41,816 nucleotides of DNA, taken from NCBI GenBank assembly GCA_947653375.1, contig CANTHA010000002.1:1-41816 (forward strand), written 5' to 3'. The notes beneath the pieces were generated by a model. It searched no databases, was not told where the DNA came from, and saw nothing but the letters and a program-made list of their open reading frames with translations. Below, piece after piece: positions 325-32,940 of the stretch. The stretch's first letter is position 1; every line of letters begins with the position of its first letter. A program made the translations under genes and the position numbers. This DNA is from an uncultured Clostridium sp. GTDB taxonomy: Bacteria > Bacillota > Clostridia > TANB77 > CAG-508.

Positions 325-359
325 TAAAAAATAGCTATTAAACTAATGTTAATAGCTAT
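325..359 (-). terminator. Rho-independent terminator after int
   Basis: Perfect 11-bp stem atagctattaa/ttaatagctat overlaps the int stop codon and is followed by a T-run on the minus strand. Confidence 0.6.
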
Positions 360-1620
360 AATTTGAAATTTTATTTATTATTTCTGAATGTGTTACACTT
401 TCAAATACATCATTTGCTTCTTTTCTTGATTCATTGGAACTAGATATATAATAATTTTCTGTTGTTTCTATATTTCTATGACCTAATAAGTCTGCAACAT
501 CTCGAATTTCAATGCCATTCTTCAATATCTTTGTAGCATAACTTCCTCGAAGATCATAGAATCTACATTTTTTTATTCCTAGCTCATAATGAATAATTTT
601 AAATGGGTATCTAGTTATATCTGTTCCAGAATATACACCATTTTCTCTTGTAAAAACTAGATTTAATGTATCTATTGTTAGTAAATTATTTTCATTTTCT
701 ACAATACGATGTTCTATAACTTTTCCATATTCATTTTTAACTTCTTCTAAATGATAATAATGATAATTTGAGCCATATAACTTTTTAAAAAATGATTGTT
801 TCTTTTTATAATTCTTTAATGCGTTTAATAATGTATTACTTATATGTATTACTCTATCTCCTGTTGATGTTTTGGTATTTCCTAAAAACCATTTTCCTTT
901 TTCATCTTTTTTCTTATCATAAACATTATGTTGAATATGTATAGTACCATTTTCTAAATCTATATTATTCCAAGTTAATGCAAATACTTCACCAGTTCTC
1001 ATTCCTGTATAGCAAGATGTTAAAAAGGCACAAGTAAAAGTATCATTATCTTTAAATCTAGTTAAAATTTTATCAATTTCTTCTTGACTATATATGTGTT
1101 TTGCATCTCTTTTTTCTTCTTCTATTTTAGGCAATCTTAATGTAATTGTAGGATTATATTTTATAAAACCATATACATCACAAGCCTCTCTAAATGATCC
1201 TTTTAATACTTTCAATATATTTGAGAAATATGTCCTAGAAAATGTATATTTGCAACATATATCTGTTATAAAAGAATGTAATTTCACACTTGTCAGAGCC
1301 GATAAACGATACATACCAATATTGGGTTTCAAGTATTTTTCTATTATAGTATTATATGATTGAATTGTATTATATCGCAGATTTACTTTACAATAATTTT
1401 GCATCCAATAATCTAAATAATCACTATATGAAATATTACTTTCTTTAAAATTTAGTCCTGTAGTTAAATATTCATTATATGCAATATTTCCCTCCTCTTG
1501 TGCCTCAACTTTTGTTCTAAATCCAGATTTACATATTTGTTTTCTTTTTCCATTTATAGGAGCAGCTTCAAAATAATATTGATATGTTTTTCCTCTTTTT
1601 CTTACATTTACTGTTCCCAT
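349..1620 (-). CDS. int: Tyrosine site-specific integrase
   Basis: N-terminal arm-binding-type region (VRKRGKTYQYYF). Catalytic region contains YTGMRTGE, YDLRGSYAT and LLGHRNIETTENYY. ATG start lies 2 nt after the xis stop. Confidence 0.9.
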   Translation of the reverse strand: MGTVNVRKRGKTYQYYFEAAPINGKRKQICKSGFRTKVEAQEEGNIAYNEYLTTGLNFKESNISYSDYLDYWMQNYCKVNLRYNTIQSYNTIIEKYLKPNIGMYRLSALTSVKLHSFITDICCKYTFSRTYFSNILKVLKGSFREACDVYGFIKYNPTITLRLPKIEEEKRDAKHIYSQEEIDKILTRFKDNDTFTCAFLTSCYTGMRTGEVFALTWNNIDLENGTIHIQHNVYDKKKDEKGKWFLGNTKTSTGDRVIHISNTLLNALKNYKKKQSFFKKLYGSNYHYYHLEEVKNEYGKVIEHRIVENENNLLTIDTLNLVFTRENGVYSGTDITRYPFKIIHYELGIKKCRFYDLRGSYATKILKNGIEIRDVADLLGHRNIETTENYYISSSNESRKEANDVFESVTHSEIINKISNYSY

Positions 1621-1622
1621 AG

Positions 1623-1895
1623 TTATCTAATCATCTCCAAATTCAATTTTTTGACATTGTTAATATCTGATAAGTCTTGTCCTTCATTATCAATTAAAAA
1701 ATTTTGTAATGATGTTTTTAAAATTTTAATACTTCCTAATTTTAATGCTGGTAAATATCCTTTTTCAATAAGTGTGTATATGTAGTTTGGACTTGAATGT
1801 AATAGAGATGCAACTTCTTGAACTGTATAAATCAATCTTTCGTTTTCAATGTTCTTATTCTTTTGTGGAAATACTTTTTCATTATTTTTTTCCAT
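1623..1895 (-). CDS. xis: Excisionase-family HTH DNA-binding protein
   Basis: YTVQEVASLLHSSPNYIYTLIEKGYLPALKLG matches the excisionase/MerR-like HTH pattern. It sits directly upstream of int. Confidence 0.75.
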   Translation of the reverse strand: MEKNNEKVFPQKNKNIENERLIYTVQEVASLLHSSPNYIYTLIEKGYLPALKLGSIKILKTSLQNFLIDNEGQDLSDINNVKKLNLEMIR

Positions 1896-5674: not shown

Positions 5675-6559
5675 CTATATAAATGATAATTGTTCTTCTT
5701 GTTTCATTTCTTTTTTATATGCTTTTACTATATCGTTCATTCTATAAAGTAATCCATATCTTTCACATTCTTCTTTAAATACTTTTCCTAAATTATTATT
5801 TAGTGGATAACAAAAATAATTATTTCCATAAGTTTTTATATACTTATCTTTTAATTTAGGAAATATCTTATCTAGTTGCTCATAAAAATATTCTCTTTGA
5901 TTTTCTCTTAATGTAACTCCTCCCATTGAGAATACAAATTTTGCTCCATTTTCATAAGATAATTTTATTACATTTCTAATATTTTCCTCCGAATCTGTTA
6001 TAAATGGAATAATTGGTGTTAGTAATGTTCCAATAAATAGTCCCTGTTTGGATAATTGTTTCATCGCTTTTAGCCTTTCAGAAGAAACACATACATTTGG
6101 CTCTATTTTTCTTGATAAATTATCATCTGCTGATGTAATTGTAAATTTAAGTATTACATCTGCTTTCCTGTTTATTTTCTTAAATATGTCTATATCTCTA
6201 ACTATCAAATTACTTTTTGTTTCTAGTGATACTCCAAAATTGTAATAGGAAATCAATTTTAATGCTTGTCTTGTTATTTCATATTGTTCTTCAAAAGGAT
6301 TGTATGTATCTGACATTGCTCCTATACCTATTACTCCTTTTTTTCTTTTTGATTTTAGTTCTTGACTTAATATTTCTATTTCATCTTTTTTGGCTCTTAC
6401 CCTATCAAAATCCTCTACTTGATAGCAATTACTTCTACTATCGCAATAAATACATTTATGACAGCAACCTTTATATAGATTCATATTATAATCAATTCCA
6501 AACCATTTTTCTCCGTGTGTTGCTCTTTGAAGTATTGTCTTTGCTTCTATAAATTCCAT
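5675..6559 (-). CDS. Radical SAM protein, SplB/DNA-photolyase-like family (COG1533-type)
   Basis: GCCHKCIYCDS cluster near the N-terminus. Size and layout are typical of SPL-family radical SAM proteins. Confidence 0.8.
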   Translation of the reverse strand: MEFIEAKTILQRATHGEKWFGIDYNMNLYKGCCHKCIYCDSRSNCYQVEDFDRVRAKKDEIEILSQELKSKRKKGVIGIGAMSDTYNPFEEQYEITRQALKLISYYNFGVSLETKSNLIVRDIDIFKKINRKADVILKFTITSADDNLSRKIEPNVCVSSERLKAMKQLSKQGLFIGTLLTPIIPFITDSEENIRNVIKLSYENGAKFVFSMGGVTLRENQREYFYEQLDKIFPKLKDKYIKTYGNNYFCYPLNNNLGKVFKEECERYGLLYRMNDIVKAYKKEMKQEEQLSFI

Positions 6560-6561
6560 AA

Positions 6562-7200
6562 CTATTTCCTTTTTCTTATTGGATGTCTTATAACTGTTTT
6601 TAATTTATTTACATCGCATCTTCTTGGATCACTTAAATAAATTTCGTGATGAAAACGAGTATCTGTAATATCTAGTTCATATCCATTTTCTATCATATAT
6701 TCGTGCATTAAACTAATAGTTTTAGGCTCATTATCATAAGAGCCTATGTGCATACATTGAATGCAGATCCCTTCATCATAAGTTAAAAATTCTACTTTTG
6801 AAAAATCTTGTTTCTTTTTCTTGGTAGCCTCATCAATAGCCCATTCAAAATCTTCTTTTGTTACAAAGTCTGGTAATCTAATAATTGAAATAAAGTTAAA
6901 TTTGTCTTTACTCTTATAATCTATACTACTTTTGTTTCCTTCTTGCCACCAGAATCCTTCAAGTGGTGGAACTACATATTCAAAATAGCCATTTATTTTA
7001 TATGTTCCTTTATAACTCATTTTTATAGTAAAAGCAATCGAATACAAAAGTCCTATTGAATCTTTATATTCACTATTTTCATCATTAGGATTTCCTTTTC
7101 CTCTAACTGCAATGTAATTCATTTTAGGAATTTCTACAATACTAGGTTTATTCTTTGGTATATAAAATTCCTTATATTCCTTTTTATAATCAAAAGCCAT
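6562..7200 (-). CDS. GyrI-like small-molecule-binding domain protein
   Basis: N-terminal DYKKEYKEFYIPKNKPSIVEIPKMNYIAVRGKGNPN pattern is typical of GyrI-like proteins. Confidence 0.75.
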   Translation of the reverse strand: MAFDYKKEYKEFYIPKNKPSIVEIPKMNYIAVRGKGNPNDENSEYKDSIGLLYSIAFTIKMSYKGTYKINGYFEYVVPPLEGFWWQEGNKSSIDYKSKDKFNFISIIRLPDFVTKEDFEWAIDEATKKKKQDFSKVEFLTYDEGICIQCMHIGSYDNEPKTISLMHEYMIENGYELDITDTRFHHEIYLSDPRRCDVNKLKTVIRHPIRKRK

Positions 7201-7219
7201 TTATCTTTATCCTTTCCCT

Positions 7220-7684
7220 TTAATCTTCTAATGCAATATAAATATGAATTTCTTGTTTTTGCATATCTTCGGAATTATTTTGATATTCTTCAAAATCACA
7301 AGTGTATTTTCTTTTTAAATCCATATTCCATATTTCTTGCCAAGCCTGCCCTACTGAATTCTGCACATCTCCTATTATTATGAATTTAGCATATTTTCCT
7401 TTTGGAATAATAATACTTTCTAATTCTTCGCCCCTTTGTACTTCCTTACTAACCTCTGCTCCTGCAATAAATGTATAAGGTTTTGTATAATCTCCCTCAT
7501 ATTTTGTATATAATCCTATTGTTTTATTATTTACCTTATTTTGTATCTTCTCATAAATCCCATCTGTAAATAATTTTTGCCAAGTTATTCCTATATCTTG
7601 CACAGCCTTTCCATCTTCATTAGTTGTATTTATTTTAATTCCTGCAACAACCTTTTCCTCTAATTCTACAATTTCATATTTCAT
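7220..7684 (-). CDS. GyrI-like / AraC-effector-binding domain protein
   Basis: MKYEIVELEEKVVAGIKINT... has the typical effector-binding-domain start and is 154 aa long. Confidence 0.75.
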   Translation of the reverse strand: MKYEIVELEEKVVAGIKINTTNEDGKAVQDIGITWQKLFTDGIYEKIQNKVNNKTIGLYTKYEGDYTKPYTFIAGAEVSKEVQRGEELESIIIPKGKYAKFIIIGDVQNSVGQAWQEIWNMDLKRKYTCDFEEYQNNSEDMQKQEIHIYIALED

Positions 7685-7725
7685 AATTTATACCTCCTAT
7701 AGATGAAGTATATAACACTTAACTT

Positions 7726-7743
7726 GACAACTGTATGTCATAT
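7726..7743. promoter_or_regulatory. Operator-like 18-mer gacaactgtatgtcatat upstream of the GyrI-like operon
   Basis: 16 of 18 positions are identical to the site at 8678-8695. Contains the inverted repeat tgaca/tgtca. Confidence 0.4.
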
Positions 7744-8657
7744 TATAAATAATTTTTTAAAGTTTTTTCTAATTTATCTTTTATAATATTTTTTGCTCTA
7801 TTTGGTGCTATAACTTTTATATGTTCTCCAAAAGATAAAATATAGCCATATACCCATTCATTCTCTGGATATTCTACTTTTACAATAAAGTTTCCATTTT
7901 CTTTTTTAGATATTTCGCTATTTTCAAATTCATCATATACTCTATAAGCCATCTCCTTACTTATTTCTAATTCAAGTAATATGTTCTTAAAATTATATTT
8001 TTCTTCTTTTTGCTCTTTTGGTAGTTCTTTTTCAAAATGTTCTTGTAATGTCTTAATTTCTTTTATTCTAGCAATTTTGAAGATTCTGTAATCTTCTTTA
8101 TTTCTACAATAACTTATTAAATACCATGATTTATCTTTAAACCATATTTGTAATGGCTCTACAATTCTTCTACTTTCTTCTCCATTAGAATTATAATAAG
8201 TAAATTTAATTAGTTTCTTGTTTAAAATTGCAGATTTAATAATCTCAAATCTATTTTCTTGTATATTATCTTTACTCCAGTTAGATAAATCTATTCTGAT
8301 CCAATCATTTATCTCTTTGTTAAATAATGTACTTAACTTCTCTAAAATATCTTTTTCATCTTGTCCTCTTACTTTTATCATCCCTTGCAAAGCAAACAAA
8401 ATTTGATTTTGTTCTTCTTCTGAAAGAATTGTTTTATTTAGTACATATTCATCTAAAAGCCCTATACCTCCATCTTTGCCCTTACTTGCATAAATTGGTA
8501 TGTTCGCACTACTCAATGCTTCTATATCTCTATATATAGTTCTAGTTGATACTTCAAATTTATCTGCTAGTTCTTTTGCTGTAACTTTTTTCTTTTGCAT
8601 TAGTATATACACTATTTCAAATAATCTATTATTTACTTGCATATTTTCCTCCTGCAA
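7743..8657 (-). CDS. YafY-family transcriptional regulator (HTH + WYL domain)
   Basis: N-terminal VTAKELADKFEVSTRTIYRDIEALSSANIPIYASKGKDGGIGL. Length and C-terminal region are consistent with a WYL domain. Confidence 0.85.
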   Translation of the reverse strand: MQEENMQVNNRLFEIVYILMQKKKVTAKELADKFEVSTRTIYRDIEALSSANIPIYASKGKDGGIGLLDEYVLNKTILSEEEQNQILFALQGMIKVRGQDEKDILEKLSTLFNKEINDWIRIDLSNWSKDNIQENRFEIIKSAILNKKLIKFTYYNSNGEESRRIVEPLQIWFKDKSWYLISYCRNKEDYRIFKIARIKEIKTLQEHFEKELPKEQKEEKYNFKNILLELEISKEMAYRVYDEFENSEISKKENGNFIVKVEYPENEWVYGYILSFGEHIKVIAPNRAKNIIKDKLEKTLKNYL

Positions 8658-9369: not shown

Positions 9370-11040
9370 TCATATATTCTCTTTGTTATATCGCCAAATA
9401 AATCCACCTGCTGATTTTCTAGTTCCATTACAGGCACTTGAAATATGTTTTATCCCAGTTAGATTTATAGCTTCTGTAACACTATTATATGTATTAACAT
9501 ACACGCCATCTAAAGTATATTGATAAACTTTTTTTGATTTTTTATTTCCTATAACTTTTTTTGCACATTCTGGACACCCTTTGCCCTGACTTCTATTATA
9601 TGGTGTTGATTGCCATTCATATTCGCAATTTGAACATTTCCACCATACTTTTTTATTACTTTTCAATGTTATTTCATTAGGAGATATAGTATTTTTTTCA
9701 TAATTCCACTCTTTTAAAAATATAGGTTTTTTTTCAAATAGTGTTCCATTCTTTTTCAATAATACTTTTTCAAGAGTAGCAACCCTTCTTTTATGCGAAC
9801 ATTTTGGGCATTTACATCCAGCCATAATTTCATTTGGACTTCTAAAATATGCTTCTCCACATTTAGAACATTTCCACCATACTTTTTTCCCACTAGATAA
9901 ATATATCGTATCTGGAGTTATAGGATAATTTTTTTCATAATCCCATTCTTTTATTATTTCACTATTTAGACTTGATAAACTGCGTTCTTTCAAAGATTTT
10001 TGATAAGATTTATCTATTTCACTATAATCTCTTTTTACATCAATAAAGTTTTTATCATATATAATGTTTAGTTTATCTAATAATGTTTTTATTGCCTTTG
10101 TTAAATTATCACCTTTATCATATCCATATATTATCTTATTATCTTTCCAAAATACATTGTTGCTTTTTTCTTTTTTCTCAATTATTCTATATAATGTGAT
10201 TCCTCTTTTTTTGATTTCATTTTCTTTTTGTTTATCAGTAGTTTTCTTGTTTTTATGAAAGAAAAATCCATCATACTCAATACCTACTTTGAATTGTGGT
10301 AAAAATATATCAATTTCATATCTATTATCTAATTTATACCTATTATAGCATTCTATATTTAACTTTTTAATATAGTAGAAAATAGCCTGTTCTCCAAATG
10401 AAGTATTCTTTTCTGAATTACATTTTGGGCATCCTCTACCATTACTTCTACTAGATATAATTGCTTTCCAACTATTTTTACATCTTTTACATATCCAATA
10501 AGCATACTGATTAGAAAATTCACCAATTTTATGAGGATTCAACTTGTTTTTTTCATAATCCCATTCTTCTAATAATTTAGGTTGTTTTGTTGCAAAATCG
10601 TTATATCCTGTTAAAATTTTATTTCCATAACAATAAACACATCTAGGAAATTTTTTTATTGCATAGGAAGTAGCATATCGTTCGTGTCCACATTCAAACT
10701 TCCACCAATATTTTTTTGTAGCATTAAATATAACTTCTTCTGGTCTTTTGTTATTTTTATCATAGTTCCAAAATTGTAATATTTGAGAATCAGTTGTTTT
10801 TAGATCATTATATCCTTTTTTGACACATCTTCTATTACAATACGGACAGCCATTTTTTATATTATTTCTATCCTTTACAATTTTTTGATATATATGACCG
10901 TTTTGGCATTTCCACCATACTTCTTTATGGCTTCCACACGTCACTTTTTGAGGGAAAATATTTAATTTATTATTTTTTTCATAATACCATTCTTTTATTA
11001 AAAGTTCATTATCTATAACATACTTCTTATCTTTACTCAT
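9370..11040 (-). CDS. Multi-zinc-ribbon protein with central Vsr/DUF559-like nuclease core and C-terminal homing-endonuclease-type DNA-binding motif
   Basis: Five WWKC...CPxC treble-clef-like modules. The core reads EIDIFLPQFKVGIEYDGFFFH and the tail reads VTEAINLTGIKHISSACNGTRKSAGGFIWRY. Confidence 0.65.
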   Translation of the reverse strand: MSKDKKYVIDNELLIKEWYYEKNNKLNIFPQKVTCGSHKEVWWKCQNGHIYQKIVKDRNNIKNGCPYCNRRCVKKGYNDLKTTDSQILQFWNYDKNNKRPEEVIFNATKKYWWKFECGHERYATSYAIKKFPRCVYCYGNKILTGYNDFATKQPKLLEEWDYEKNKLNPHKIGEFSNQYAYWICKRCKNSWKAIISSRSNGRGCPKCNSEKNTSFGEQAIFYYIKKLNIECYNRYKLDNRYEIDIFLPQFKVGIEYDGFFFHKNKKTTDKQKENEIKKRGITLYRIIEKKEKSNNVFWKDNKIIYGYDKGDNLTKAIKTLLDKLNIIYDKNFIDVKRDYSEIDKSYQKSLKERSLSSLNSEIIKEWDYEKNYPITPDTIYLSSGKKVWWKCSKCGEAYFRSPNEIMAGCKCPKCSHKRRVATLEKVLLKKNGTLFEKKPIFLKEWNYEKNTISPNEITLKSNKKVWWKCSNCEYEWQSTPYNRSQGKGCPECAKKVIGNKKSKKVYQYTLDGVYVNTYNSVTEAINLTGIKHISSACNGTRKSAGGFIWRYNKENI

Positions 11041-11113: not shown

Positions 11114-11148
11114 TTGACATTTTTCTTATTTTCGACAAATTTCAACAC
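11114..11148. promoter_or_regulatory. Three 0A-box-like heptamers upstream of the Spo0E-like ORF
   Basis: TTTGACA (11114), TTCGACA (11132; exact reverse complement of TGTCGAA) and TTCAACA (11142), each preceded by AATTT. Confidence 0.4.
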
Positions 11149-11197
11149 ACTATTTTATGTAAATATGATAAGATATATATGAAGGGAGTTGATATTT

Positions 11198-11362
11198 ATG
11201 GATTCTAAAACAATCTATTTAATTATGAAAAATACTGCTAAATTAGAAAAACTAATTGAAACCAATGCTCCTTATGAAAAGATCATCAAACAAAGTCAGA
11301 AATTAGACAAGTATATTATGATACAAATGAAACATATTAACAAAATAGGAGTTAGTTCTTAA
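11198..11362 (+). CDS. Spo0E-family aspartyl-phosphate phosphatase-like protein (54 aa)
   Basis: Not in the ORF track because it is under 60 aa. GAAGGGAG RBS. MDSKTIYLIMKNTAKLEKLIETNAPYEKIIKQSQKLDKYIMIQMKHINKIGVSS carries the SQxLDxxI signature. Confidence 0.6.
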   Translation: MDSKTIYLIMKNTAKLEKLIETNAPYEKIIKQSQKLDKYIMIQMKHINKIGVSS

Positions 11363-11376
11363 ACTATCTCCTATTT
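11343..11376. terminator. Bidirectional hairpin between convergent genes
   Basis: aaataggag/ctcctattt, a perfect 9-bp stem spanning both stop codons. Confidence 0.5.
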
Positions 11377-11635
11377 ATTCTTTTACTGCAATCAATAATT
11401 CGTTAGGTTGTACTGTCATATTTGCATTTCTATAAGTATATTTTGCTCCTGTAAAATATACATCATATCCATTGTTTTCAAAATAGTCTTTATTTATTTT
11501 TAAAAACTTATCTATCTCTAGTTCTGATAAATTGTTCTTAACTCTTAGCTCATAAAAAGTATATCTTATAAAATTCTTATCTTCGCTTTCATTTAATTTA
11601 TCATTTATATAGTTAATTACAAAAGCATCTGTCAT
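11375..11635 (-). CDS. Hypothetical small protein (86 aa)
   Basis: I prefer the start at ATG 11635 (GGAAGTGAG RBS, MTDAFVINY...) because a good promoter and tandem 0A boxes lie inside the longer track ORF (to 11731). Confidence 0.55.
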   Translation of the reverse strand: MTDAFVINYINDKLNESEDKNFIRYTFYELRVKNNLSELEIDKFLKINKDYFENNGYDVYFTGAKYTYRNANMTVQPNELLIAVKE

Positions 11636-11660
11636 TTTCTCACTTCCAATCTCAAATAGA

Positions 11661-11689
11661 ATTATATCATATTCTTGTTTTTCTGTATA
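11661..11689 (-). promoter_or_regulatory. Sigma-A-type promoter for the 86-aa gene
   Basis: On the minus strand: TATACA, 17-nt spacer, TGATATAAT (extended -10). Confidence 0.45.
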
Positions 11690-11711
11690 GATTTTTGATT
11701 GCATTTTGTTA

Positions 11712-11728
11712 TTCGACAACATTCGACA
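11712..11728. promoter_or_regulatory. Tandem consensus Spo0A boxes, 10-bp phased
   Basis: TTCGACA at 11712 and 11722 (TGTCGAAtgtTGTCGAA on the minus strand), between the divergent promoters. Confidence 0.5.
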
Positions 11729-11749
11729 CAATTCCTTATAAAAAGGGCT

Positions 11750-11769
11750 AAAAAGGGTACAAAAAAAGA
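11750..11769. repeat. Exact copy of the 20-mer aaaaagggtacaaaaaaaga (also at 3721-3740)
   Basis: Exact 20/20 match. It is preceded 10 bp upstream by the half-site aaaaagggct. Confidence 0.6.
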
Positions 11770-11780
11770 AGTTTACAGTA

Positions 11781-11809
11781 TTGAATTGACATAATTTTTG
11801 TGATATAAT
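11781..11809 (+). promoter_or_regulatory. Sigma-A-type promoter of the Spo0A-like gene
   Basis: TTGAAT, 17-nt spacer, TGATATAAT (extended -10). GAGG RBS lies 7 nt before the ATG at 11848. Confidence 0.5.
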
Positions 11810-11847
11810 GTGGAAAAAAATAGGAGAAACATTTGTGAGGCAAAATT

Positions 11848-12579
11848 ATGGTTAATGTACTTATCGGCAACAAGAATACTAGAGAAACTGATATTCTTTG
11901 CCACGAACTTGCAAATGATAAAAATTATAGGGTTGATAATGTTGTTACTGGAAAAGATGCAGTAACTATGTATTGGGATATGAATCCAGATATTTTAGTT
12001 TTAGATAATAACTTATCTGATATGTCTATTGAAGATATAGTAAATAGATTATCTTGTAATCCTTTAGAACAAAAACGATGTAATACTATTCTAACACTAT
12101 CGCCACACTATAGAATGAAATTGAATAATGTTGCAAAAATCAATGAGATTATATATAAACCTATTTTAAATAATGAGTTAGTTGAAACTATAAAAACAAT
12201 GTCTATTGATTATAATACTCCAGATTTAGAAGTTGGTGAAATTGATTGGCTGTTACAATCTCTAAACTTTAATTGTATGTCTGCTGGATATAAATATATG
12301 CGAGATGCTATTACCTACTGCTATTATAGACCAGATGAATTAGAATTTTTAACTACAGTATTGAAATATATTGCTTATAAATATGATGTTCCAGAATCAC
12401 GAGTTAGAGATTCATTAAAGAGTTGTATTAGACCATTTAATAATACCAATATATATAGTTGCCCAGATGATCTGTATAAGGTATTATACAATAGTGGTAA
12501 TAAATTATCCCTTAAAGATTTTATAGAAAGAATCGTTTTTTATTTGATTAGAGTTAAGAAAAAAGGTAGAATATTCTAG
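11848..12579 (+). CDS. Spo0A-family regulator paralogue (receiver + Spo0A_C DNA-binding domain) with degenerate acidic pocket
   Basis: NPDILVLDNNLSDMSIEDIVNRL and IIYKP align with the Spo0A receiver. GYKYMRDAITYCYY...VPESRVRDSLKSCI aligns with the Spo0A C-domain. The DD pair is replaced by N-K (VLIGNKN). Confidence 0.75.
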   Translation: MVNVLIGNKNTRETDILCHELANDKNYRVDNVVTGKDAVTMYWDMNPDILVLDNNLSDMSIEDIVNRLSCNPLEQKRCNTILTLSPHYRMKLNNVAKINEIIYKPILNNELVETIKTMSIDYNTPDLEVGEIDWLLQSLNFNCMSAGYKYMRDAITYCYYRPDELEFLTTVLKYIAYKYDVPESRVRDSLKSCIRPFNNTNIYSCPDDLYKVLYNSGNKLSLKDFIERIVFYLIRVKKKGRIF

Positions 12580-12602
12580 TTATTAGAAGTATCCTACCTT
12601 TT
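12561..12602. terminator. Bidirectional hairpin between convergent genes
   Basis: aaaaggtag/ctacctttt, a 9-bp stem with a partly self-paired loop and T-runs on both strands. Confidence 0.55.
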
Positions 12603-12606
12603 CTTT

Positions 12607-13812
12607 TTAAAACTGTGCATTTATGTATTCTTTATAAGAATCTATAATTCCTACATATCTTATTTGTGTTTGTTCTCTAATTACTGTATTCATCTTATCT
12701 CCAATAATCTTTTTAGCTTCCAAATATTCCTCTTTTGGAATGTCTAAAGCTATAAAATTAAATGCTGGTACATTTTCATTTAATGCTTTTTTAGATTGTT
12801 TAATTATATCAAGTCCATTCATATTAGTTCCAAAATCATATTTAGAAAACACCATTTCTGGCTTAAATTCAATAATTTTATTGTAAGTATCTTCTGGATT
12901 TTTTGTTGTAGCAACAATTTCAATATCCTCAATTCCTTTTAATATATTAACAATTTCATCCTTTGTTTTATCATCATCGTAAGCGATTAACGCCCTAATC
13001 TTTTTCATAATACTATCTCCATTCATATTTATATACTCATCAATATACTTGACTACATTATCATTTATTGCATTTCCAAGTAAGAAGTCTATACCATTTT
13101 CTGTTTTTATTATATCCCCATTTGCTAAAATCAAAATATTTTTCTCTAAATCTTCCTGTTTCTTAAAGGTTACACTACTTATATTTTCATACTTTTCATA
13201 TATTTTTCTTAATACACTATCAAATTCAAAGTTTGTAATTTCAAATATTTCTCTATTTTTTTCAGCCGATTCTCGTAATGGCATAAATTGATATAATTTC
13301 CAAATACCAATTTTATAATTATTTAAGAAATCACCTAATTCTTCAATTTCTTCAAGATTTTGTTTATTTACTACTGTATTTATATTCACTTTCAATTTCT
13401 TATAGTTTTCCAACTTTATATAGTTAAGTATATTGTGAATATTGGTAAAGTGTTTCTCTCCTCTACCTAATATATCATTAGTTTTACTTTTTATAGAATC
13501 TAATGATATTGTCAGATCATCTAAATAATTCAGTATTTCATAGTTTTGCTCTAACAATTTTCCATTTGTTATGATTCTATTATAGATTCCGTTCTCTTTT
13601 GATATTTTGATTAACTTATACAACTCTGGATATAATAGTGCCTCTCCACCAGTCCAGGTAATATGTGTTATTCCATCTCTTATTAGATTATATAGTATCT
13701 TTTCATTCTCTTTATAATCTAGTTCTCTTATGTTTATGAAACGATGACAATATTTGCAATTTTGATTGCATCTTGAAACAATATTCCAGCATACTTTCTT
13801 TTTAATTTTCAT
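12607..13812 (-). CDS. Radical SAM enzyme (viperin-like core) fused to a C-terminal CheY-like receiver domain
   Basis: Core motifs are CNQNCKYC, TGGEALL, ITNGKLL, LTISLDSIKSKTNDILGRG and IWKLYQFMPL. The C-terminal ~125 aa begin IRALIAYDDD and continue PEMVFSKYDFGTNMNGLDI. Confidence 0.75.
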   Translation of the reverse strand: MKIKKKVCWNIVSRCNQNCKYCHRFINIRELDYKENEKILYNLIRDGITHITWTGGEALLYPELYKLIKISKENGIYNRIITNGKLLEQNYEILNYLDDLTISLDSIKSKTNDILGRGEKHFTNIHNILNYIKLENYKKLKVNINTVVNKQNLEEIEELGDFLNNYKIGIWKLYQFMPLRESAEKNREIFEITNFEFDSVLRKIYEKYENISSVTFKKQEDLEKNILILANGDIIKTENGIDFLLGNAINDNVVKYIDEYINMNGDSIMKKIRALIAYDDDKTKDEIVNILKGIEDIEIVATTKNPEDTYNKIIEFKPEMVFSKYDFGTNMNGLDIIKQSKKALNENVPAFNFIALDIPKEEYLEAKKIIGDKMNTVIREQTQIRYVGIIDSYKEYINAQF

Positions 13813-13843
13813 AATTCATCCCTCTTTCATAAATTGTATCTGT

Positions 13844-13898
13844 ATTATATATTCATCAAAAATGAATGTAAATCAACATTTTCGAGGGTTATCCGACA
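13844..13898 (-). promoter_or_regulatory. Promoter of the radical SAM-REC gene with an upstream 0A-box-like site
   Basis: On the minus strand: TTTACA, 17-nt spacer, TATAAT. TGTCGGA (6/7 of TGTCGAA) lies about 20 nt upstream of the -35. Confidence 0.45.
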
Positions 13899-13910
13899 TT
13901 TTTTGTAGGT

Positions 13911-13939
13911 AAAAAAAAGAATATCCTTTTTGGATATTC
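13911..13939 (-). terminator. Rho-independent terminator after the LysR gene
   Basis: gaatatcc ttttt ggatattc, a perfect 8-bp stem followed by T8 on the minus strand. Confidence 0.7.
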
Positions 13940-13968
13940 GATATATATACTTATAAAATTTTATAGAT

Positions 13969-14871
13969 TTATTGTTTTTTTAAATAATTTTTAATAAATT
14001 GTTTATCTACTTTTGTCAACTGATTTTTTAAATATACTATTTTTATACTGCTCTTTGGTAACTTTATAGGAACTTTAACTTCATATAATTCATTATTTTC
14101 TATATATTTACAAGCAGTTTCTCTCATTACATAAGCGATTCCTATTCCATCTAATGCTGCATTTACTCTATCTTCTGTAGTAGGACATCTTAATATTGCA
14201 TTAAGAGAAATGTTGTGATCTTTCAATTTTTCGTTTAATTCTACAGTCGAAATTCTATCTTCATAATTCAAAATATATTTATAATTATTAAAATCTACTA
14301 TATCTTTTATTTCTATTTTTTTATTAGCTATAAAAACATTTTCAATAGTTTCTATTTCTTCTATCTCTAAATCTTCTTTATATTCTGGAGGAATAACATC
14401 TAAAATAATAAAGTCTATCTTATTACTTTTTAATGATTCTATTAGTTCTTTACTATTAGATTCTGTGTCTAAATTTATTTGAATATTTGGATAATCTTTT
14501 ACAAGATCAACAAGTTTTTTTCTTAAAAAGAATTTTGTTATATGCGAAGGGCATCCTACAGATATTTTTCCATTTTCTAAGCTATTTTTGCTTTCTATTA
14601 TTGTTGGTATAAAATCAAATAATCCGATTGATTTTTTAGCTTGAATGTATGTTTCTTTTCCAAACTCTGTTAGTTTTAGACCTTTGTTAGAGCCTTTATT
14701 TTTTCTATAAAATAGTTGTACTCCTAATTGATCTTCAAGCGAATTGATATTTGCACTAACAATCCTATCACTTATATTTAATTTTTCAGCAGCTTCAGCA
14801 AAACTGTCCGATTCTGCTACAGTTAAGAAAGTTCTATATAGATTTAGGTTTATATTATTTACATTAACCAT
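13969..14871 (-). CDS. LysR family transcriptional regulator
   Basis: N-terminal LNLYRTFLTVAESDSFAEAAEKLNISDRIVSANINSLEDQLGVQLF HTH; 300 aa. Confidence 0.9.
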   Translation of the reverse strand: MVNVNNINLNLYRTFLTVAESDSFAEAAEKLNISDRIVSANINSLEDQLGVQLFYRKNKGSNKGLKLTEFGKETYIQAKKSIGLFDFIPTIIESKNSLENGKISVGCPSHITKFFLRKKLVDLVKDYPNIQINLDTESNSKELIESLKSNKIDFIILDVIPPEYKEDLEIEEIETIENVFIANKKIEIKDIVDFNNYKYILNYEDRISTVELNEKLKDHNISLNAILRCPTTEDRVNAALDGIGIAYVMRETACKYIENNELYEVKVPIKLPKSSIKIVYLKNQLTKVDKQFIKNYLKKQ

Positions 14872-14877
14872 TATTCT

Positions 14878-15507
14878 CTATCTCCCCAATATCTTCTTTA
14901 ATTCCCTTTCAGCTTTTTTTACAAAAAAATCGCTTTCATCTATTGGTATTTCTAACTCTCTTATCATTTGTTTTAATTTATCTACTGTATCAAGTTGTTC
15001 ATTATTTTCTACTGTTTCAACTTCGATTAAGTTATCTCCGTTTTCTATATCTTTAATTGCAATTTCAAGTCCATTTTTGCCATATACTAAACTACTTTCT
15101 CTAATACTCATTATTTCTTTATATTCAATGGCTTTTATAAAACTTTTGCCCTGTTCTAAATTCTTTATTTCACAGTCAACCTTTTCTTGACCAATAATAT
15201 CTCCATTGGGTGCGATATCTTTATTTTTATATGTCATTTTAATAATATCATAACTACTTGTAAAATCACTTGGCTCATATTGTTTTATCTTTCTTATCAA
15301 GATATAGTGATTTAATACTTCTCTAGGAGATAATTTCGTTATATCTAAATCTTTTGAAATATAATATGTATCATCTAAAAAATATTTATCAACTATCTTA
15401 AATCCTTTGTTTTCTAGTATATTATACATTTCCTCTATACTACATTTTAGTTTGACTGTTATTTCATTACTCACCAAATATCTCTCCTTAAAAATATTAC
15501 TTTTCAA
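14878..15507 (-). CDS. CYTH domain protein (class IV adenylate cyclase / triphosphatase-like)
   Basis: NEITVKLK at the N-terminus, then IRKIKQ, MTYKNK, VDCEI and LIEVE beta-strand acidic/basic patterns. The second Glu of EXEXK is replaced by Thr. Confidence 0.6.
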   Translation of the reverse strand: MKSNIFKERYLVSNEITVKLKCSIEEMYNILENKGFKIVDKYFLDDTYYISKDLDITKLSPREVLNHYILIRKIKQYEPSDFTSSYDIIKMTYKNKDIAPNGDIIGQEKVDCEIKNLEQGKSFIKAIEYKEIMSIRESSLVYGKNGLEIAIKDIENGDNLIEVETVENNEQLDTVDKLKQMIRELEIPIDESDFFVKKAERELKKILGR

Positions 15508-15599
15508 TTATAACACATTATGTCAATTTTGTAAAGTCAAAAAAGTTCTAAAAAAAGCCACCATTTCAACAATAGCAGCTATTTTTCTTATATAAAATT

Positions 15600-15849: not shown

Positions 15850-16389
15850 TTAATTTATTCTCTTATGTTCTAAATAATATTCTAAAATTTTTCTATCTCT
15901 TAATACAACAAATCTAGTATCATATACATCATCATAGTCTGATGGTAATAATTTATCATAGCAATCTGTTACTAATTTTAATGCCTCTTTAGGCTCTACC
16001 CATAATAACTTTGCACCTTCACTTTTCTCTTTTTCAGTTAAATTTAATTTGTGCTTATCGTTTATAACTTTTGCAATAAAAATATTAGATATTTGTTTCA
16101 AATTTTGCAAACTCTTATATTCTTCTGTAGTTCCTAATTTCTCAATAATCTCTATTTCGCAACCTGCTTCTTCTAATACTTCTCTTTTGAAAGCAATGGT
16201 CGGATCTTCATTTTCTTCCATTCCTCCTCCGACAAGTTTATATTCATTTTTATTGCTTTTATTTTGTATTGCTATTTTTCCATCATCTCTAACAACAATT
16301 CCTCTAGCAGCTACTCGTAATCTATAATCTTTCATTTCTTGTGGCTCTATTCCAAAATCTTTATCTGTTATTTTAAATAATATATCCAT
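15850..16389 (-). CDS. NUDIX hydrolase
   Basis: Nudix box GGGMEENEDPTIAFKREVLEEAGCEI. Confidence 0.85.
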   Translation of the reverse strand: MDILFKITDKDFGIEPQEMKDYRLRVAARGIVVRDDGKIAIQNKSNKNEYKLVGGGMEENEDPTIAFKREVLEEAGCEIEIIEKLGTTEEYKSLQNLKQISNIFIAKVINDKHKLNLTEKEKSEGAKLLWVEPKEALKLVTDCYDKLLPSDYDDVYDTRFVVLRDRKILEYYLEHKRIN

Positions 16390-31308: not shown

Positions 31309-32940
31309 TTATTTACTATATAATGAATCAATCTCTTTTTTCTTTTCCAAAACAAGTTTTTCTAAATCTGTTCCCTTTGCGATTCCAATTTTTTGATTGT
31401 CTTTATCATATAGTTCGTATTCTTTATCATCTACTAAATATAATGTATAAAACTGATATTTTTCATTATAGGCAGTAAATTTTTTATCTATATGTATTTT
31501 AAAGTTTGTATAAGGTAAATTTATACAATACTCTTTATCATTTGAATTTTTGTAGTCTATTTTATTTCCACCAAATTTAATATTGTGTATATATAAACCA
31601 CTACTTGATAATTTTTCTTCTTTTATAGTTTCTAAATGATTAAGTTCCCTTTGAAGTTCTAATATTTCGTTTCTTTTTTTATTTATTTTAATTCGTTCTG
31701 ATCTTGAATCTTTAATTAACTGCTTTGCTTCATCAATAGAAGTTATATTCAAATCATTTTGTAATTTTATAAATATATCAACTTCTGTTGGAAATACATA
31801 ATCCTCATCTATTTCTTTATAAGACATAGCATACTCATATAATTCATAAAGTCTAATATAATCATTTGCCATCTCTGTAGTTTTAAGAATCTTATTAAAT
31901 TTTTCTTGATTCTTTTTCACTTCAATATTTTTATCTTTTATCTGCCCTCTTTTAATTGATATTTCTGTTTCAATATCATTGAAATCTCGGATATTATATT
32001 TATCTAAATATTCTAATTGTTGTTTTAATTTATAATATCGTTGTATTTCTTGATATTTTGTTTTTTGATATTCATTATAAACTTTTCCTTTAGTTTGCAA
32101 CTGACTTTTTTCTATAGCAATTTTAGATTCATTTGCTTTTTGAAATAATATAGAATTAAATTCTGTTTTATTTGTTTTTATTGCTAGTAATTTAATGTTT
32201 GTCCTATCTCTATAAAATTTATATAAATTGTTAGTAGCATACTTTGAACTTATTGTATCTATTCTTGCATATCTTTGCATACCTAAACATCTAACTGAAA
32301 TATGCTTTCCTCTCCTTATCTCATATCCTTTAATAGATAATTCATCTAATAGTTCATCAATACTATTACATTTAGAAATAACCTTTTCAATATCATCTTG
32401 TATTTGTTCTTTCCAAGTCTGTCTTTTATATTGGTAATAGTAATCTCTTTCTCTCGATTTATGATAAATTTTTTTAGGCATAATAAAACAACCATACTCT
32501 GCTGCAATTTTATCACTTGTATCGCTTAATCCATACAAACCTTCTTTTTGATTTGCAAGTCTATCTTCTAATTTCTTTCCAGACAAGTTTATTGCATTTA
32601 CAGATATATGATTGTGTATATGTCCTTTATCAATATGAGTGGATATTACACATTGATAATTCGGATATAGTTCTTTGCATAATTTCAAGCCAATTTCATT
32701 TGCTTGTTCTACAGTTATTTTATCCTTTGGAGAAAAACTTTGTATAATATGATATGCTGATCTAGTTCCTGTCATTTTAAATTTGTTTTGAACATCTTTA
32801 AATTCATAATATGCAGTATTTATATTGCAATTTAAGCTACTTGTAAATCCAACTTTTGCTCCATCATTTTTTTCATCCAAAATATATTCAATTAAATTTT
32901 TCGCAGTTCCTAAATGTGCTAATCTTTTTGTAACTGGCAT
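31309..32940 (-). CDS. Relaxase/mobilization nuclease (MobA/VirD2-type, PF03432-like)
   Basis: YHIIQSFSP and HIDKGHIHNHISVNAINL histidine triad, followed by a long Lys/Glu-rich C-terminal region. Confidence 0.85.
   Translation of the reverse strand: MPVTKRLAHLGTAKNLIEYILDEKNDGAKVGFTSSLNCNINTAYYEFKDVQNKFKMTGTRSAYHIIQSFSPKDKITVEQANEIGLKLCKELYPNYQCVISTHIDKGHIHNHISVNAINLSGKKLEDRLANQKEGLYGLSDTSDKIAAEYGCFIMPKKIYHKSRERDYYYQYKRQTWKEQIQDDIEKVISKCNSIDELLDELSIKGYEIRRGKHISVRCLGMQRYARIDTISSKYATNNLYKFYRDRTNIKLLAIKTNKTEFNSILFQKANESKIAIEKSQLQTKGKVYNEYQKTKYQEIQRYYKLKQQLEYLDKYNIRDFNDIETEISIKRGQIKDKNIEVKKNQEKFNKILKTTEMANDYIRLYELYEYAMSYKEIDEDYVFPTEVDIFIKLQNDLNITSIDEAKQLIKDSRSERIKINKKRNEILELQRELNHLETIKEEKLSSSGLYIHNIKFGGNKIDYKNSNDKEYCINLPYTNFKIHIDKKFTAYNEKYQFYTLYLVDDKEYELYDKDNQKIGIAKGTDLEKLVLEKKKEIDSLYSK

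Follow-up and report, generated by a model that had tools for sequence, protein, structure and literature searches.

The stretch analysed here (the window: 41,816 nucleotides of contig CANTHA010000002.1, from an uncultured Clostridium sp.) has a G+C content of about 25 per cent and holds nearly all of its genes on the minus strand. Since it encodes, among other things, a tyrosine integrase, an excisionase-like HTH_17 protein and a MobA/VirD2 relaxase, the window is an integrative mobilisable or conjugative element; two DNA methyltransferases are also encoded in it. An original prediction, made from the sequence alone, had grouped four adjacent genes of its cargo into one module, namely a Spo0E-like phosphatase gene, a gene for a product of 86 amino acids (aa), a paralogue of spo0A, and the gene for a viperin-like radical S-adenosylmethionine (rSAM) enzyme with a receiver (REC) domain. 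All four open reading frames (ORFs) are present as called, most of what was said about their domains is borne out, and the mobile setting envisaged for them is supported. As a whole, the observation is partly confirmed and its interpretation partly supported.

The functional unit is a four-gene cassette of a different composition, carried as mobile-element cargo in low-GC gut Clostridia. Its gene order is fixed and consists of a CYTH-like (triphosphate tunnel) protein gene, a LysR-type regulator gene, the viperin-like rSAM::REC gene and, convergent to the latter, the gene for a REC::Spo0A_C transcription factor (Table 1). We regard this cassette as a viperin-type system whose partners are unusual. 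Enzymes of this type are among the rare forms of immunity that bacteria and animals have in common, and the native partners and regulation of the bacterial ones are poorly known. The cassette, which is compact and very widespread in gut metagenomes, ties such an enzyme to a CYTH protein, two unusual regulators and, in some lineages, a toxin.

Co-occurrence was examined in a scan of one genome per species, which yielded 56 loci, nearly all of them in metagenome-assembled genomes (MAGs) of uncultured gut Clostridia; tblastn and ORF clustering were applied to the 49 loci with a full-length rSAM::REC enzyme. Alongside the enzyme gene (49 of 49), the Spo0A-like gene is found in 47 loci, the LysR gene in 45 and the CYTH-like gene in 44, at protein identities that fall to 43 per cent for the enzyme and to about 24 per cent for the Spo0A-like protein, and no further gene around the cassette is conserved in these 49 loci. 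The four families originally grouped together fail to co-occur, as the Spo0E-like gene accompanies the cassette in near-identical copies only and the 86-aa gene in one sub-lineage, whereas the right end assigned to the module (position 13939) cuts off the LysR and CYTH-like genes, which are the true conserved partners.

The cassette adjoins Tn916-type sigma70_r4/HTH_16/HTH_17/integrase modules in three loci (L059–L061), lies downstream of a relaxase and a C5-methyltransferase in another (L062), and in L064–L067 adjoins paired serine recombinases, where the same element occupies different chromosomal insertion sites. No near-identical DNA turned up when plasmid and phage collections were searched. 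Full-length rSAM::REC proteins form about four 50 per cent identity clusters among 1.84 billion representatives, and one version of the Spo0A-like protein (P0145) is listed in approximately 1,190 data blocks of an assembly index; the fusion is therefore narrow in diversity yet abundant. Decayed copies also occur: the enzyme gene is split into 226- and 104-aa pieces in L071 (4011–5240), and frameshift-truncated Spo0A-like genes (P0222/P0227, 160–185 aa) are present in many assemblies, which indicates frequent natural loss of function. Our literature searches recovered no specific report on a viperin with a CYTH protein, a LysR regulator or a receiver and, in agreement with the original view that the combination was undescribed, we found no published description of the cassette.

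Table 1. Positions of the cassette, its regulatory sites and other features; coordinates refer to the window, except for the last two rows, which refer to locus L008.
Feature	Position	Strand	Remarks
Conserved cassette	11848-15474		Genes; 11848-15535 with the CYTH-LysR promoter
CYTH-like (triphosphate tunnel) protein	14878-15474	-	About 200 aa; cassette gene 1; beyond the right end of the originally predicted module
LysR-type regulator	13969-14871	-	Cassette gene 2; HTH_1 63.4 and LysR_substrate 69 bits; beyond the right end of the originally predicted module
Viperin-like rSAM::REC gene	12607-13812	-	401 aa; cassette gene 3
Viperin-like radical-SAM domain	13027-13812	-	aa 1 to about 262
Degenerate REC domain of the rSAM protein	12607-13005	-	aa about 270-401
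REC::Spo0A_C transcription factor	11848-12579	+	243 aa; cassette gene 4
CYTH-LysR operon promoter	15507-15535	-	TTTACA-17-TGnTATAAT
CYTH-LysR operon terminator hairpin and T-run	13919-13939	-	Stem GAATATYC/GRRTATTC, conserved in divergent loci
rSAM promoter, near-consensus	13844-13872	-	TTTACA-17-TATAAT
Bidirectional terminator-like hairpin, convergent Spo0A-like/rSAM	12555-12610		-16.1/-19.8 kcal/mol; z -3.9/-4.7
Spo0A-like gene promoter, sigma-A type	11781-11809	+	TTGAAT-17-TGnTATAAT; highly conserved, all lineages
Two perfect tandem 0A boxes, divergent 86-aa/Spo0A-like region	11712-11728	-	TGTCGAA-N3-TGTCGAA
86-aa gene	11375-11635	-	Accessory neighbour in one sub-lineage; sometimes called as 115 aa
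Bidirectional terminator-like hairpin, convergent Spo0E-like/86-aa	11343-11376		-14.9/-14.4 kcal/mol; z -5.0/-4.4
Spo0E-like gene	11198-11362	+	54 aa; lineage-specific neighbour, outside the conserved cassette
Spo0E-like promoter-like site	11142-11169		
Tandem 0A boxes, Spo0E-like promoter	11131-11147	-	TTCGACA-N3-TTCAACA on the + strand; overlap the -35
Tyrosine integrase	349-1620		
HTH_17 excisionase-like gene	1623-1895		
MobA/VirD2 relaxase	31309-32940		
ToxI-like repeats of L008	5632-5732		
ToxN::CYTH gene of L008	5711-6865		

The viperin-like enzyme and its CYTH-like partner

The CX3CX2C (CNQNCKYC, aa 15–22) and GGE (WTGGEA) motifs are invariant in the rSAM family of the cassette. The PADLOC profile for prokaryotic viperins (pVips) scores 130 bits over positions 2–248 of its 257, and the best NCBIfam match is NF038283 (viperin_w_prok), with 116.7 bits against 79 for MoaA. 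When the family profile was compared with the PDB, solved viperins (88 bits) came above MoaA (57 bits), and Foldseek places viperins at all of ranks 1–30 (E 1e-10), with MoaA at 4e-7. The original call of a viperin-like rSAM domain joined to a receiver fold thus stands. MoaA identity was considered and rejected on these lower scores, and no further conserved cysteine cluster is seen in the family alignments. Cfr-like resistance, which had been suggested by the tet(M)-like cargo position in Tn916-type elements, was also rejected because the enzyme is viperin-like.

Viperins dehydrate nucleoside triphosphates (NTPs) to 3′-deoxy-3′,4′-didehydro forms (ddhNTPs), and pVips are radical-SAM nucleotide dehydratases that make ddhNTP chain terminators. 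With pVips, the cassette enzyme shares the CX3CX2C core, coverage by the pVip profile, viperins as its neighbours in sequence and fold, and carriage on mobile DNA. It differs from them in having a C-terminal aspartate-less receiver, in reading VCW where an aligned solved viperin has VNYH, in scoring below the NCBIfam cut-off, and in its partners, which are CYTH, LysR and Spo0A_C proteins rather than the nucleotide kinases of pVips. A multi-gene organisation around a viperin-related enzyme is likewise found in the defence system Ophion, in which a pVip-related but phylogenetically distinct rSAM protein is combined with PHP and PRTase proteins (bioRxiv 10.1101/2025.09.30.679545); Ophion has other partner genes and hosts and is without a receiver, a CYTH protein or a Spo0A_C factor.

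Stand-alone rSAM relatives (50 per cent identity, approximately 257 aa) are present in Bacilli and Muribaculaceae MAGs (L048–L052). They lie in an operon (for example, L049 4397–11126) that encodes a U32-family protein, (a DAHP-synthase-like protein), a methyltransferase, the rSAM protein, (an rSAM-SPASM protein), a methyltransferase and a CYTH protein with a canonical ExExK motif. This operon, which seems undescribed, has the look of a route to a hydroxylated or methylated nucleotide.

The CYTH-like protein of the cassette matches the cyaB model TIGR00318 at E 1.2e-8, and its profile retrieves from the PDB 2een, 1yem, class IV cyclases and one triphosphate tunnel metalloenzyme (TTM), with CYTH proteins at E 3.8e-7, which supports a CYTH fold. 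Residues E15, I16, T17, R72, K94, E162, E164 and K198 are invariant. They include the C-terminal ExE (E162, E164), while the first motif is E-I-T-x-K/E and lacks its second glutamate.

The L008 group, of approximately 19 loci, encodes a fusion protein that begins with a complete ToxN (PF13958, 146 bits) as its N-terminal half and continues with the CYTH domain as its C-terminal half; the gene for this protein is preceded by ToxI-like tandem repeats (36 nt × 2.8). Tandem repeats upstream of the toxin gene are the hallmark of the ToxI antitoxin RNA. A complete ToxN and ToxI-like 36-nt repeats are what these loci have in common with type III ToxIN systems; the difference is that in the L008 group ToxN is fused to CYTH inside the cassette, and we have not seen a type III toxin of such architecture described. 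The window itself contains neither ToxN nor ToxI-like repeats, and its copy is a CYTH protein alone.

Shomar et al. (bioRxiv 10.1101/2023.09.13.557418) reported certain eukaryotic viperins in fusion with a triphosphatase or cyclase domain, from a class to which COG1437 (CyaB/CYTH) belongs. These fusions resemble the two operon types described above, the cassette and the stand-alone operon, in combining a viperin-type enzyme with a triphosphatase/cyclase-type, possibly CYTH, domain, but they do so in one protein, whereas in the cassette the two are separate genes on bacterial mobile elements and are accompanied by regulators. The ToxN::CYTH loci, the stand-alone operon and the eukaryotic fusions support three independent recurrences of rSAM–CYTH coupling, and the cassette is a concrete system for asking what role the viperin–CYTH pairing, also hinted at in the eukaryotic fusions, has.

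Receivers, promoters and the Spo0E-like gene

The original prediction proposed that the products of its four genes act together as a sensor/decoy/effector module plugged into the sporulation phosphorelay, which would couple the Spo0A~P state to production of a modified nucleotide. Its call of a Spo0A paralogue with a pseudo-receiver is sound, and the Spo0A_C domain speaks for the model. The 243-aa protein passes the Pfam Spo0A_C model (PF08769; 28.2 bits, cut-off 25), and its family profile retrieves from the PDB first the Spo0A C-domain 1lq1 (E 1.4e-8), 1fc3 at E 1e-8, and then receivers. The AlphaFold2 model (predicted local distance difference test [pLDDT] score of 84.7) has a REC fold, with a template modelling (TM) score of about 0.8. 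The protein stays far below the Spo0A equivalog model TIGR02875 (33.9 bits, cut-off 200), and its recognition helix is ESRVRDSLKSCIR, compared with ASRVERAIRHAIE in Spo0A. The window shares with the Spo0A/Spo0E phosphorelay a Spo0A_C DNA-binding domain, a Spo0E-like peptide with an SQxLD motif and canonical 0A boxes, but the recognition helix differs from SRVERAIRHAIE, the receiver is degenerate, and the genes are located on a mobile element, away from the spo0A locus. The viral family phrog_37855 matches the 243-aa protein from end to end.

Profiles of the C-terminal ~130 aa of the rSAM protein match VraR, CheY and Spo0A-N (E 1e-7 to 1e-5); these are response regulators, and a flavodoxin reading of the domain was rejected. 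The column aligned to the phospho-acceptor aspartate holds K, E or Q, a call made from profile alignments only, the AlphaFold2 model of rSAM::REC having a pLDDT below 50 in its REC part. In the receiver of the Spo0A-like protein, N-K replaces the acidic pair in the window, which we take to resemble the non-phosphorylatable, activating D13K change of CheY; across the family the acceptor position varies among D, N and G, and loss of the conserved lysine is frequent. Neither receiver has the canonical residue set (acidic pair, Asp, Thr/Ser and Lys). The two are not close paralogues (13 per cent identity, hhalign probability of 80 per cent), and no kinase or phosphotransferase gene is linked to the cassette. 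With degenerate receivers, lacking a conserved acceptor and acidic pocket, and no linked kinase, wiring of the cassette into the phosphorelay by phosphotransfer appears unlikely from the sequences, contrary to the original model. In one abundant element lineage (L059, 5734–6219), the cassette has immediately upstream of it an additional single-domain receiver of canonical type (DD, D, T and K present), the sole one so placed in the loci examined and not conserved.

The cassette receivers are aspartate-less receivers of the kind, exemplified by FrzS, that has been reviewed elsewhere (PMC4395418). They share with FrzS and other pseudo-receivers a REC fold without a phosphorylatable Asp or an acidic pocket, and in fold comparisons of the Spo0A-like model the FrzS receiver ranks with the best matches. 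What sets them apart is that one is joined to a radical-SAM enzyme and the other to a Spo0A_C output domain; as far as we found, neither kind of fusion has been described. For the question of how such receivers control an enzyme, the cassette is a concrete system.

A single operon, closed by a hairpin, contains the CYTH-like and LysR genes, and the rSAM gene follows with its own promoter; both HTH_1 and LysR_substrate score above threshold in the LysR protein. Of the promoter and hairpin terminator originally assigned to each unit, promoter-like sites are found upstream of every unit, and three hairpins fold far better than shuffled sequences (z −3.9 to −5.0). The stem of the 13919–13939 hairpin (AGAATATYC ... 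GRRTATTCT and a T-run) is kept in almost all lineages (L003–L062), between flanking proteins that are only about 40–45 per cent identical, and its loop varies. This looks like conservation of sequence beyond structure, and the hairpin could act as an RNA or protein recognition element. No Rfam family matches the window, and a repeat scan of 10.9–16 kb gave only chance-level pairs.

The 0A boxes said to be shared by the units are real and enriched. The window contains four copies of the perfect box TGTCGAA where 1.17 would be expected; three of them, including the one at 11131–11137, lie within 600 bp (11131–11728), which favours the phosphorelay model. Their distribution tells against it: conserved 0A-like or lineage-specific boxes are absent from the rSAM and CYTH promoters. 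At the window's rSAM promoter only degenerate words are present (TGTCGGA/CCTCGAA), which are altered in a relative with a 94 per cent identical rSAM protein; most lineages instead have LysR-type inverted repeats (for example, TTGAAAAAATC-N12-GATTTTTTCAA) just upstream of this promoter, where the window's own sub-lineage has just a short direct repeat.

The lineage-specific boxes cluster solely upstream of the Spo0A-like gene. There (window 11740–11809), a promoter of the form TATTGnnTTtACATAAT-N7-TGnTATAAT is extremely conserved in all loci and is preceded by phased GGnnA and A-tract repeats, possibly operator sites or intrinsically bent DNA. The direct repeats number two to four with a period of 10–11 bp; they include tandem 0A-type boxes in the window's sub-lineage and read GGCGAAA, GGTCAAA, TGTCAAA and the like in others. 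TGNCRAA is found 20 times, against 1.6 expected, in this region of 21 non-redundant, but related, loci. L003, L062, L004 and L061 all retain, at about −95 relative to the Spo0A-like promoter, tandem 0A-like boxes of which the first is perfect and the second has one mismatch, irrespective of the divergent neighbour. These boxes suggest autoregulation, or control by the host Spo0A, of the Spo0A-like gene and not of the enzyme gene. In the window's element only, the perfect 0A boxes probably link the Spo0E-like gene, the 86-aa gene and the promoter of the Spo0A-like gene to host Spo0A~P.

The 54-aa Spo0E-like product has an SQKLD motif (SQELD in the family), which is in favour of the phosphorelay model, but scores 19.8 bits against Pfam SpoOE-like, below the gathering cut-off of 23, and no solved structure matches the peptide. 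Homologues form about 100 clusters at 64–96 per cent identity, of which five carry PF09388, found in some homologues at 65–72 per cent identity. Beside the cassette, the gene is seen solely in near-identical copies of the window (L001–L003, L068–L075), in which the block of Spo0E-like gene, 86-aa gene and cassette is kept while the left flank changes (L072 versus L068), a point for the phosphorelay module. Against its membership, no divergent locus of the cassette contains the gene, and its homologues ride other conjugative or integrative elements that have no cassette (L076–L081; gene at 6001–6165). Some of these elements carry a type IV secretion system coupling protein (L076–L078); in others (L079–L081), serine recombinases are accompanied by a different, 229-aa REC + Spo0A_C paralogue, so that a pairing of a Spo0E-like gene with a Spo0A_C gene recurs on a different element, which again favours the model. 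This paralogue (6486–7175), unrelated to the window's protein by BLAST, adjoins the Spo0E-like gene and a tyrosine recombinase, and its receiver shows an E-D pair as well as an Asp where the acceptor would be expected (motifs read by eye); mobile Spo0A_C paralogues may form a broader class.

Tandem 0A boxes overlap the −35 of the Spo0E-like promoters in the window, L078 and L080/L081, and one-mismatch variants of them occur at those of L076 and L079. We read the Spo0E-like gene as an independent, recurrent unit of integrative and conjugative elements (ICEs) under Spo0A-box control, and its distribution suggests that such genes are commonly carried by mobile elements. ICEBs1 reportedly delays sporulation, and the unit is analogous to it in spirit. 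Literature searches for Spo0A-like or Spo0E-like genes on conjugative elements found nothing specific. The question raised is whether Spo0A-type factors and Spo0E-like genes serve the mobile elements of spore-formers as a means of reading or manipulating the development of the host. As for the 86-aa gene, its product has no Pfam or NCBIfam match; a homologue with 73 per cent identity adjoins the Spo0A-like gene in L062, and another with 59 per cent identity is located about 6.5 kb away in L018/L019.

Possible roles of the cassette

We tentatively favour, with somewhat less than even confidence, a reading in which a transcriptionally controlled pair of rSAM and CYTH proteins would make or process a modified nucleotide, most likely as protection, by defence or abortive infection, from phages or competing elements. 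The modified-nucleotide product of the original prediction is, on sequence grounds, plausible. In such a scheme, the radical-SAM domain would act on a nucleoside triphosphate in the manner of viperins, and the CYTH tunnel protein would bind or cleave the triphosphate of the enzyme's substrate or product. The LysR protein could turn the enzyme gene on upon a small-molecule cue, and the two aspartate-less receivers may work through protein–protein contacts without phosphorylation. We favour defence because of the viperin-like enzyme, the ToxIN fusion and carriage on mobile elements.

Several observations weigh against this reading. The NF038283 score falls short of the curated cut-off of 180, and with VCW in place of VNYH the substrate may differ from that of viperins; in the CYTH-like protein, E-x-T-x-K replaces ExExK, so that it may bind rather than hydrolyse its ligand. 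The operon of the closest stand-alone relatives looks biosynthetic and has no defence context, and LysR regulators are more typical of metabolic operons. There is no defence-island signal: PADLOC recognised few known defence families in 150 neighbouring ORFs from 13 loci, and the cassette therefore lies outside classical defence islands. Finally, only one relative was present among 2.9 million viral contigs, which we list here although we count it as neutral for defence.

A rival reading is a non-defence pathway, in which the rSAM and CYTH proteins make a modified nucleoside or nucleotide as a metabolite, signal or antagonistic compound and the LysR protein is a ligand-sensing pathway activator. 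The biosynthetic look of the stand-alone operon, LysR control and the scarcity of defence families among the neighbours all point this way. We nevertheless consider such a pathway unlikely, though it deserves to be kept in view: the cassette contains two enzymes only and no transporter, moves as mobile-element cargo and, in a large sub-lineage, fuses CYTH to an abortive-infection toxin with ToxI-like repeats, and the pVip profile spans the whole catalytic domain.

The cassette might, alternatively, serve the element itself, either by stabilising it (addiction) or by regulating excision, transfer or host development, with the Spo0A_C factor controlling a divergent recombination or regulation operon. 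Many loci do have the Spo0A-like gene divergent from an operon of small ORFs that leads to recombinases, the 0A-like boxes described above are repeated in the shared intergenic region, and ToxIN modules also serve as addiction systems. Yet in the window and in L062 the cassette stands apart from the recombination module, it is not obvious how a radical-SAM enzyme and a CYTH protein would take part in the control of excision, and the upstream repeats may be mere phased A-tracts; we hold this explanation to be improbable.

A more far-reaching reading is, in our estimation, a long shot. The product of the enzyme would be a chain terminator and, in addition, a ligand for the CYTH tunnel domain, which in one lineage would directly gate the fused ToxN RNase, while the two aspartate-less receivers would couple the enzyme to the Spo0A-type factor and so link infection or stress to control of developmental genes through the host's Spo0A boxes; the cassette would then be a new nucleotide-based immune or signalling system of mobile elements. 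The original phosphorelay module is the least probable proposal of all, given receivers without a conserved acceptor, a Spo0E-like gene that travels independently, and an enzyme promoter with LysR-type repeats in place of conserved 0A boxes.

Other genes of the window

A NUDIX hydrolase gene (15850–16389) adjoins the cassette and co-occurs with it in close relatives only; its product has a weak match (35.7 bits) to PADLOC PDC-S07. Another cargo block (5675–8657) encodes a PA0069/Rv2578c-type radical-SAM protein (SPL-like), two GyrI-like/Cass2 ligand-binding proteins and a WYL-HTH-WCX regulator. Between this block and the Spo0E-like gene, a 556-aa protein (9370–11040), probably a homing- or defence-type nuclease, combines five DUF4379 treble-clef zinc fingers with an MTES_1575/DUF559-like restriction-endonuclease core (sub-threshold) and NUMOD1.

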